From Candidatus Dojkabacteria bacterium (GTDB lineage Bacteria > Patescibacteriota > Dojkabacteria > JAHIVN01), in the NCBI GenBank assembly GCA_016932045.1, contig JAFGDO010000003.1, forward strand, positions 12,115-76,114: a stretch of DNA of 64,000 nt, read 5' to 3'. Made by a program: the position numbers and the translations under genes. Below, in pieces: positions 39,804-42,077 of this stretch. The notes below the pieces were generated by a model that was given only the letters and a program-made list of their open reading frames with translations, was not told the origin of the DNA and did not search any database. Position 1 is the stretch's first letter; each line of letters starts with the position of its first letter.

Positions 39804-39972
39804 TTAATTATTTTAATAAACTAAGTCCCATAGTATCAATTCGGGCACTTTGTACTGATGTAAAAAAATAATTAATTAATTATGTTGTCGAAGGGATTTT
39901 TAAGTTCTCTGCTTGTGTTAGCCTAGTGTATATAGTAGAATTATACAGAATTTAACTGTTAATTGCTACTTC

Positions 39973-40560
39973 ATGAATATATATTTCACAACTTCCGGAA
40001 AATTTTTTAAAGAGAACAAAAAAATATACGATAAGATTATCAAAACCTTAAGTAAACTCACTGGCAATAAACCATATGTAGCCCTTGAAGATATCGACTA
40101 TGAAAATGCCTCAGAGCAAGAAATACTTAGGGCAGTGAAGAAAATGGTAAAACAGTTAAACAATGCCGATATAGTAATCACTGAAAATACTTACTCTGTT
40201 GCAGCAGTAGGATATGACATAGCTACTGCGATAAATTCAAGAAAACCAGTCCTAGTACTTAAATTACAAGATAAAAGTAAACCCGGACCTCATCCTATAA
40301 ATGTACTGAGGAATAGATTATTAACGTATACAGAATACACTGGTCAGAACCTAGAAGATATACTGAAGGACTTTATTGAAAATGCTCATGAAATGCTTGA
40401 CACAAAGTTCATACTCATCATATCGCCGGAAATTGACCGTTATCTCGAATGGGCTGCTGATAATAAAAGAATGCACAAGGCCCAGATTGTGAGAAAAGCG
40501 GTAGAAAAAGAGATGGACAACGATGGCTTGTACAAACAGCACCTGGAAAGGAAAGCATAA
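39973..40560 (+). CDS. nucleoside 2-deoxyribosyltransferase-like domain fused to a C-terminal ribbon-helix-helix (CopG/Arc-like) DNA-binding domain
   Basis: N-terminal MNIYFTTSG...ADIVITE...SVAAVGYDIATAINSRKPVLVL fits the NDT-fold signature (YFaG...DlVia...GtafEiGyA..gKPV). C-terminal KFILIISPEIDRYLEWAADNKRMHKAQIVRKAVEKEM fits a beta-alpha-alpha RHH. Confidence 0.6.
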   Translation: MNIYFTTSGKFFKENKKIYDKIIKTLSKLTGNKPYVALEDIDYENASEQEILRAVKKMVKQLNNADIVITENTYSVAAVGYDIATAINSRKPVLVLKLQDKSKPGPHPINVLRNRLLTYTEYTGQNLEDILKDFIENAHEMLDTKFILIISPEIDRYLEWAADNKRMHKAQIVRKAVEKEMDNDGLYKQHLERKA

Positions 40561-40647
40561 CCACAAACCCTCATCTTTGTGATATAATAAATACAATATA
40601 TACCCAGTTGGCGTATATACCTACAATATAACTTGGGGTAGGATAAT

Positions 40648-41445
40648 ATGAATTCAAGTGATATCATTAAACTAAAACCCATTATTAGGGATTACTTATC
40701 GGGAGATATAACACAAACACAAGTAATCCGAAAGCTAAAAAAACAGGAGAGTGATACCTGGCACTTTGTCATGGATGATGATCGCATCCTCTTTAGGAAT
40801 CAAAACTCAAAAATTGTTATTAATACAAAAGTTGACTCTCCTTTTAGTACAGCAAAACAAGTGCCGGTAAACTACCGCGAAATAAATAATGAAAGCTTGA
40901 ACATAATTGCTGAAACAAAACTTTTAATACAAGATAGATTAGGCAACAAGAAGATTATTACTTTTTCTGGGACAGCAAGAAGACGTTTTGATGAAAAGAA
41001 AGCAAAAGAGGTAATCAAGAAGTTCTTAAATCAAATATCTCCTGATAAGTACATTGTTCTTACAGGAGGTTATCACAAAGGAATTCCACTTATTGCAGCG
41101 CAAGTCGCAAAAGATAATGGATTTAAAACCTTGGCTATATCACCACAAGTCATAAAAACCCTAAGAGGAAGAAAAAAATTGCAAGATCTTTATGATCTCG
41201 AAATCATAGAGGGAGAAGATTGGGGAGAAGAATCATTTTTATTATCCGGAGTATCCGATATCCTGGTGATTATTTGTGGAGGTTTTTGGACCAAATTAGA
41301 ATATACATACGCAAGAAAATTTAAGAAAAAAATCTTCCTTATTAAAAATTTAGGTGGTTTTTCTGAAGAAGAAGAAGAGCAAGGAAAGGATATTTTTCAC
41401 ATTTCCCCTTTACAAATCGGTGGTATAAGAGGTAAAATTGACTAA
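40648..41445 (+). CDS. LOG/SLOG-family Rossmann protein (TIGR00730/DprA-LOG-like) with a 100-aa N-terminal domain of unknown function
   Basis: IVLTGGYHKGIPLIAAQVA and VIICGGFWTKLEYTYA resemble the two LOG motifs (GGGxxGxMGxxA, PGGxGTxxE). AGGA RBS 6 nt before the ATG. Confidence 0.55.
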   Translation: MNSSDIIKLKPIIRDYLSGDITQTQVIRKLKKQESDTWHFVMDDDRILFRNQNSKIVINTKVDSPFSTAKQVPVNYREINNESLNIIAETKLLIQDRLGNKKIITFSGTARRRFDEKKAKEVIKKFLNQISPDKYIVLTGGYHKGIPLIAAQVAKDNGFKTLAISPQVIKTLRGRKKLQDLYDLEIIEGEDWGEESFLLSGVSDILVIICGGFWTKLEYTYARKFKKKIFLIKNLGGFSEEEEEQGKDIFHISPLQIGGIRGKID

Positions 41446-41477
41446 ACGTTATATATCACCTTTTATTATATATCACA

Positions 41478-42077
41478 ATGAAGGTATATTTCACAGGATC
41501 CATAACACATAAAAAGGAAAATAAAGACTGGTATACTAGGATAATACATATTCTAGAAAGCAATGGACATACACTCAATAAAGCTAATCTTAAAGTCGAC
41601 CCAAGCCAACTAAAGGAATATTCTGAGAATCAGATCGTGAAAACATACAAAAATATAATGAAATGGATAGATGAAGCTGATGTTGTCATAGCAGAACTCT
41701 CGAAGCATAGCAGTGGTGTCGGTTATGAAATCGCCTATGCACTGGATCAAAGGAAACCAGTTCTTGCTATATATAATAAAAAGCTGACTCCAAGTCCAGT
41801 ATCTATTCCTATTAGAGGAAACCCCTCTAGATATCTAGTATTCAAGGAGTGTGATGATAAAACTCTAGAAACAACCTTGAAAGAATTTCTAAGATCTTCG
41901 AAACAAAAACTAGATACTAAGTTCATTCTGATCATTTCTCCGGAGATAGATAGGTATCTTGAATGGGCTAGTGATTTTAAAAGAATGCATAAGGCACAAA
42001 TAGTGAGAAACGCTGTCGAGAACGATATGAATAGTGATAAAGATTACCGAGCTTTCTTAAAGGAAAAGACGAAATAA
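41478..42077 (+). CDS. paralogue of 39973-40560: NDT-like domain plus C-terminal ribbon-helix-helix domain
   Basis: MKVYFTGS...ADVVIAELSKHSSGVGYEIAYALDQRKPVLAIY. C-terminal KFILIISPEIDRYLEWASDFKRMHKAQIVRNAVENDM is nearly identical to the first copy, with about 75% nucleotide identity over the 3' 110 nt. Confidence 0.6.
   Translation: MKVYFTGSITHKKENKDWYTRIIHILESNGHTLNKANLKVDPSQLKEYSENQIVKTYKNIMKWIDEADVVIAELSKHSSGVGYEIAYALDQRKPVLAIYNKKLTPSPVSIPIRGNPSRYLVFKECDDKTLETTLKEFLRSSKQKLDTKFILIISPEIDRYLEWASDFKRMHKAQIVRNAVENDMNSDKDYRAFLKEKTK

Follow-up and report, generated by a model that had tools for sequence, protein, structure and literature searches.

A DNPH1-like/ribbon-helix-helix fusion family of Dojkabacteria with predicted TATATA operators: a candidate autoregulating, nucleotide-responsive regulator

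Ribbon-helix-helix (RHH) proteins of the CopG/Arc/MetJ type are small repressors that work from short repeated operator boxes at promoters and present a polar or basic strand to the DNA. Two described proteins join such a module to a larger partner. In proline utilisation A (PutA) of E. coli and Salmonella, an N-terminal RHH is fused to an enzyme (PRODH/P5CDH); in the two-domain regulator NikR, an N-terminal RHH is coupled to an ACT-like, metal-binding ligand domain, and the operator consists of two short half-sites at a fixed spacing (GTATGA-N16-TCATAC). DNPH1/Rcl (2'-deoxynucleoside 5'-phosphate N-hydrolase; 5-hydroxymethyl-dUMP N-hydrolase) is a stand-alone enzyme of ~150 aa. Dojkabacteria and other bacteria of the candidate phyla radiation (CPR) are uncultured organisms with tiny genomes that depend on nucleotide scavenging, and gene regulation in them is, to our knowledge, largely undescribed. 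Here we analyse a Dojkabacteria locus in which a DNPH1-like domain and a C-terminal RHH module meet in one protein, together with a short repeated element that we propose as its operator.

The window (the whole 64-kb stretch of DNA analysed) carries three genes on the forward strand, A (39973–40560, 195 aa), B (40648–41445, 265 aa) and C (41478–42077, 199 aa), which the original prediction had read as two enzyme/RHH fusion paralogues flanking a LOG/SLOG-like protein. All three reading frames are present with the motifs quoted for them, and the neighbouring genes for a pfkB kinase (best match nucleoside-kinase-like) and a PEP-utilising protein were likewise confirmed. A and C, which belong to a DNPH1-like plus RHH fusion family named here NR, are indeed paralogous and can be aligned over their full length with 45% identity (E = 3e-51). 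By domain, identity is 33% in the N-terminal part and 85% in the 41-residue RHH core (residues 146–186 of C), in line with the near-identical C-termini noted originally. The C-terminal coding regions, 82% identical at the nucleotide level, differ at many synonymous sites, which led us to reject a recent conversion between the two genes.

The N-terminal domains (residues 1 to ~140 of both proteins, degenerate in A) had been described as nucleoside 2-deoxyribosyltransferase (NDT)-like. The NDT fold stands, and profile searches together with Foldseek comparison of a predicted structure refine the assignment, placing both domains in the DNPH1/Rcl branch of that fold. C passes the Pfam model PF05014 (Nuc_deoxyrib_tr) with 51.1 bits (cut-off 28.8); A, at 18.3 bits, falls below this cut-off and is recovered as a clear homologue by the NR family N-domain HMM (E = 1.5e-40). 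Against PDB sequences, the family profile retrieved rat and human DNPH1 (E = 8.5e-19 to 3e-15), with the best match spanning residues 3–138. The AF2 model of C (pLDDT 93.6) adopts a flavodoxin-like fold, for which the top 50 Foldseek matches in the PDB are all DNPH1/Rcl (best E = 1.5e-9; target-normalised TM 0.72–0.86) and superimposable.

Retention of the active site differs across the family. C keeps Tyr4, Asp68, Glu73, Ser78 and Glu84 as well as an S-x-x-I-R-G loop, so that the rat DNPH1 set of Y13, D69, S87 and E93 is complete in it (Y4, D68, S78 and E84). A retains Y4 and D66, with the phosphate-binding Ser replaced by Val76 and the nucleophile Glu by Asp82. At 51 single-copy loci, the nucleophile position is occupied by Glu (22 loci), Leu (12), Asp (8) or another residue or a gap (9). 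The phosphate loop shows no conservation within the family. Members with the full catalytic set, such as C, probably also hydrolyse the N-glycosidic bond of their ligand. The conserved catalytic residues of C favour an account in which NR is mainly a metabolic (d)NMP N-glycosidase serving salvage or nucleotide-pool cleaning in an organism unable to make nucleotides, with the RHH used only for oligomerisation and with RNA polymerase reading the TATATA pairs described below as part of a normal promoter or 5'-UTR. The company kept by NR is consistent with this account: genes of nucleotide handling surround related loci (two NUDIX genes, CYTH, HAD and GTP cyclohydrolase II; a YfbR-like HD 5'-nucleotidase; Maf and UDG), and the pfkB kinase of the window is, as noted, nucleoside-kinase-like. 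We nevertheless consider it unlikely, in view of the nucleophile Glu missing from more than half of the single-copy orthologues, the unconserved phosphate loop and the properties of the C-terminal domain.

That domain occupies residues ~144–185 of A (nt ~40402–40527) and 146–186 of C (nt 41913–42035), where a third helix follows the RHH. Direct searches did not return the predicted RHH: Pfam RHH models gave no match in A or C even at E = 10, and the C-terminal 55 residues had nothing significant among Pfam, NCBIfam and PDB sequences. Structure prediction and transitive homology, however, both point to it. In the AF2 model of the domain from C (pLDDT 91.6), an extended strand is followed by two helices (H14–27 and H31–45), and the Foldseek list, with probabilities up to 0.98 and E-values of only 0.3–10, is dominated by RHH proteins, including PutA, NikR, many antitoxins and ParG/omega. 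The C-domain of a divergent relative (P0210) matches Pfam RHH_3 (23.9 bits, cut-off 21.6), and P0210 matches the family C-domain profile (E = 3e-12); furthermore, an L061 paralogue matches RHH_3 at 1e-3 and RHH_1 at 4e-3, and residues 150–193 of A match a CopG-like PHROG profile (E = 2e-3). The predicted structure and the link through P0210 thus support assignment of the C-terminal domain as an RHH. We found no paper describing an NDT-fold/RHH fusion in a limited literature search, as the original prediction had supposed, although PutA and NikR already exemplify the concept of combining an RHH with an enzyme or a ligand domain.

The RHH is under far stronger selection than the enzyme domain: mean pairwise identity across the NR family is 69% in the former and 28% in the latter, and K148, F149, I150, L151, I152, K172, A173 and R177 are invariant. 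This imbalance, like the existence of stand-alone versions of the RHH module (52–100 aa), runs against a role for the RHH limited to holding a metabolic enzyme together. The predicted DNA-facing residues of the strand are Lys-Ile-Ile, unusually hydrophobic for an RHH, and one may speculate about contacts between these Ile residues and the methyl groups of thymine.

B was correctly taken for a LOG/SLOG Rossmann protein, matching Pfam PF18306 (SLOG cluster4) over residues 108–241 with 41.1 bits (cut-off 26.3). Its first ~100 residues had no match in profile searches, and the description of this N-terminal domain as uncharacterised holds. Scores against TIGR00725 and TIGR00730 were far under their cut-offs, and the Moco carrier protein 2iz5 in the PDB was matched at E = 6e-3. 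In place of the LOG motif PGGxGTxxE, B has CGGFWTKLE, in which Gly-Gly, Thr and Glu are kept and the second Gly has become Trp. Among 5.8 billion proteins, B has a single homologue (P0122), whose contig carries an NR gene downstream.

Such a neighbourhood had suggested a nucleotide-centric conflict system of the Thoeris type, in which the NDT/TIR-like proteins would make a signal that the SLOG protein senses, itself acting as effector. C does reach Pfam ThsB_TIR with 22.1 bits (cut-off 21.2) and PADLOC ThsB at E = 1.4e-5, B shares the sensor fold of ThsA, and the locus is a variable hotspot. The DNPH1/NDT matches of C are far stronger, however (51 bits, and E = 8.5e-19 against the PDB, compared with E = 0.02 for TIR), and the weak ThsB-like PADLOC matches can be attributed to the shared flavodoxin-like fold. 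B lacks a SIR2, Macro or transmembrane effector domain and has no ThsA match in PADLOC; it is also nearly unique, whereas NR is widespread, mostly without a SLOG partner, and fixed in a housekeeping position in ~40 species. An RHH with its own predicted operator points instead to transcription control. We regard the conflict reading as unsupported and highly improbable. A defence or phage origin was similarly rejected, PADLOC and PHROG matches being marginal at best (E = 1.7e-5 or weaker for PHROG). More generally, an NDT/TIR-like and SLOG neighbourhood is by itself insufficient for calling a defence system.

NR is a large and unstudied family in Dojkabacteria, with more than 340 members. It is a syntenic gene of Candidatus Dojkabacteria that lies between ftsA and a Lon-like AAA+ gene, in the arrangement groEL-groES-X-ftsA / NR / AAA-L25-jag-yidC in ~40 species. 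The gene before NR is often variable (a methyltransferase, GTP cyclohydrolase II or SLOG), and the N-domain subgroup tracks this upstream cargo gene, a correlation that may reflect species phylogeny alone. Comparison of neighbourhoods across related genomes thus upheld the synteny of NR but not the co-occurrence of A, B and C: NR stands mostly alone or after other genes, and only P0122 pairs a B-like gene with NR, so that the trio finds no support as a unit. The position near jag-yidC, genes that many bacteria have close to the origin, and the many antitoxins, ParG and omega proteins among the structural neighbours of the RHH raise the idea that NR organises or segregates DNA (ParG/omega-like) or is an antitoxin-like RHH, in either case without responding to a ligand. 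To this we attach very little probability. No partner ATPase is conserved beside NR in the loci compared, nor is a toxin gene, and promoters at the NR loci examined have the boxes in one or two pairs, not in centromere-like arrays. In antitoxins, moreover, the RHH is N-terminal and a toxin-binding tail forms the C-terminus, whereas the RHH of NR is C-terminal to a 140-aa nucleotide-binding fold. A type II toxin-antitoxin pair was rejected on this domain order and on the lack of any conserved small partner gene in 58 loci.

The upstream regions of the three genes share a short element. Before C, the TATATATCAC repeat noted originally is real and consists of TTATATATCAC twice (41449–41459 and 41466–41476), a direct repeat with a 17-bp period that makes up the predicted operator (41449–41476); its TATATA boxes lie at 41450–41455 and 41467–41472, with the repeat ending 1 nt and the second box 5 nt short of the ATG. 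Before B, the predicted operator TATATA-N11-TATATA (TATATACCCAGTTGGCGTATATA, 40597–40619) lies 29 nt upstream of the gene and follows an extended −10-like element (TGTGATATAAT, 40580–40590), read from the sequence and with a putative promoter role. A has a weaker version, an exact TATATA (39929–39934) and a degenerate TTATAC (39941–39946) located 27–44 nt upstream, without the exact N11 pair. All of these features are on the forward strand. Exact N11 pairs occur in the 64-kb window only before B and C, compared with 0.37 expected.

Across 652 kb examined, the 23-bp element TATATA-N11-TATATA occurs 27 times, compared with 0–9 pairs for each other spacer from 0 to 30, and control hexamers gave no comparable spacer peak. 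When N10–12 pairs are considered together (28, comprising 27 N11 and one N10), all are intergenic; 23 lie directly upstream of NR genes, and the remaining five precede co-directional genes close by, in most cases the one immediately upstream of NR. The N11 pair was absent from ~390 other upstream regions examined, including those of strongly expressed housekeeping genes such as groES, L25 and yidC. TATATA density in the 80 nt upstream of NR genes is 2.45 per 100 nt versus 0.28 (~9-fold enrichment), and the box is present at 84% of NR genes versus 12% of other genes of similar AT content; roughly one NR gene in five has no exact TATATA box. In many orthologous loci the boxes are preceded by the same TGATATAAT element as is seen in front of B. 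TATATAAT contains TATAAT, and the first box often holds a perfect TATAAT, an observation that sits well with the metabolic account; resembling −10 elements as they do, the boxes could owe part of their signal to promoter architecture. Against a purely promoter-based explanation stands the restriction of the N11 pair to NR genes and their neighbours. A scan for the sigma-70 consensus was uninformative (5 sites versus 10.6 expected). An RNA element was rejected, as Rfam had no match at the boxes and predicted folding there does not surpass that of shuffled controls (z = −0.2 to −1.0). With centres 17 bp apart, the two boxes fall on different faces of B-DNA, an arrangement that a simple dimer-of-dimers would not easily fit. 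Variant relatives provide anecdotal but suggestive indications that operator specificity covaries with the RHH strand, drawn from three variant loci: one with the strand KFTLRI has three copies of ACGAGTNN plus an inverted copy upstream (n = 1), and one with KFNFII has TGTCAC/GTGACA repeats (n = 1).

The interpretation that fits best is the alternative also raised in the original prediction, an autoregulated island: TATATA boxes lie directly before all three genes, paired at B and at C and, at A, as one exact and one degenerate box. Sitting behind such boxes, A and C look like self-regulating nucleotide-responsive switches rather than an immune system. We judge it reasonably probable, as a single joint proposition, that NR is an autoregulating RHH one-component transcription regulator with an enzyme or sensor nucleotide domain, that A and C are two old paralogues within this Dojkabacteria/Patescibacteria family, and that B is a rare, variable 'cargo' gene for a SLOG/LOG-like nucleotide-binding or phosphoribohydrolase-like protein. 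In this proposal the C-terminal RHH would dimerise, as follows from its fold, and it would bind paired TATATA boxes with an 11-bp spacer and 17-bp period, a specificity we infer because the element is strictly co-located with NR genes. The boxes would overlap or directly follow the −10 of the NR gene and of the co-directional gene just upstream, and binding would repress these genes; the targets here would be B and C, the site at A being weaker. The DNPH1/Rcl-like domain would bind a nucleoside-5'-monophosphate-type ligand and thereby modulate DNA binding, a form of ligand control suggested by analogy to NikR and PutA. Members without the nucleophile Glu, such as A with its Asp, may be pure sensors. 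B would have been placed under NR control as cargo and probably makes up a two-gene module with C, beside the separate NR gene A.

A broader reading, which we offer only tentatively and think doubtful as it stands, is that NR and its variable upstream gene are exchangeable 'enzyme + matched sensor' modules. The cargo enzymes concerned are the methyltransferase, GTP cyclohydrolase II and SLOG/LOG-like proteins; the domain would have passed repeatedly between catalyst and pure sensor, each version matched to the nucleotide-derived compound that its cargo enzyme makes or consumes, while the near-invariant RHH would read one TATATA-N11-TATATA element through its hydrophobic Lys-Ile-Ile strand. If true, NR and its element would constitute the first transcription-factor family and operator code to be defined as specific to one CPR lineage, and NR a natural example of enzyme-to-sensor conversion. 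Independently of it, the family, whose members number in the hundreds, and its sharply delimited 23-bp element supply a concrete candidate regulator-operator pair for CPR bacteria, and the proposed regulator is tied to nucleotide chemistry and so links to nucleotide scavenging. NR also offers a clean system for studying an enzyme fold recruited as a sensor. Its annotation needs correcting, as database labels ('nucleoside 2-deoxyribosyltransferase' or 'hypothetical') miss the DNA-binding domain, and about half of the proteins are probably incapable of the reaction behind their name.

Set beside the described systems, C shares with DNPH1/Rcl the fold and the motifs YF.GS, ADVVIAE, S..GVGYE, KPVL and S..IRG; NR differs in adding an RHH, in lacking the Arg-Gly-Gly phosphate loop and in the replaced nucleophile Glu of A and about half of the family. 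B resembles LOG, the Moco carrier protein and TIGR00725 in its Rossmann-like SLOG core with a GGxxG loop, and departs from them in its unmatched 100-aa N-domain, its partly kept LOG motif and the extreme rarity of its subfamily (two sequences known). Like CopG/Arc/MetJ, the NR module has a strand-helix-helix topology with a hydrophobic/polar alternating strand, a P/S-E helix cap, a K-A/S-x-I/V-x-R opening of helix B and (predicted) short repeated operator boxes at the promoter; unlike those small repressors, it has a third helix, a large N-terminal domain and a predicted Lys-Ile-Ile strand instead of a polar or basic one. PutA likewise fuses an RHH to an enzyme, but the RHH of NR is C-terminal, its partner is a 140-aa DNPH1-like domain, and many NR proteins have lost the nucleophile. 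NikR is similarly a two-domain RHH regulator acting on two short half-sites at a fixed spacing, as predicted for NR; there, however, the half-sites would be TATATA boxes separated by 11 bp, and the domains come in the opposite order.

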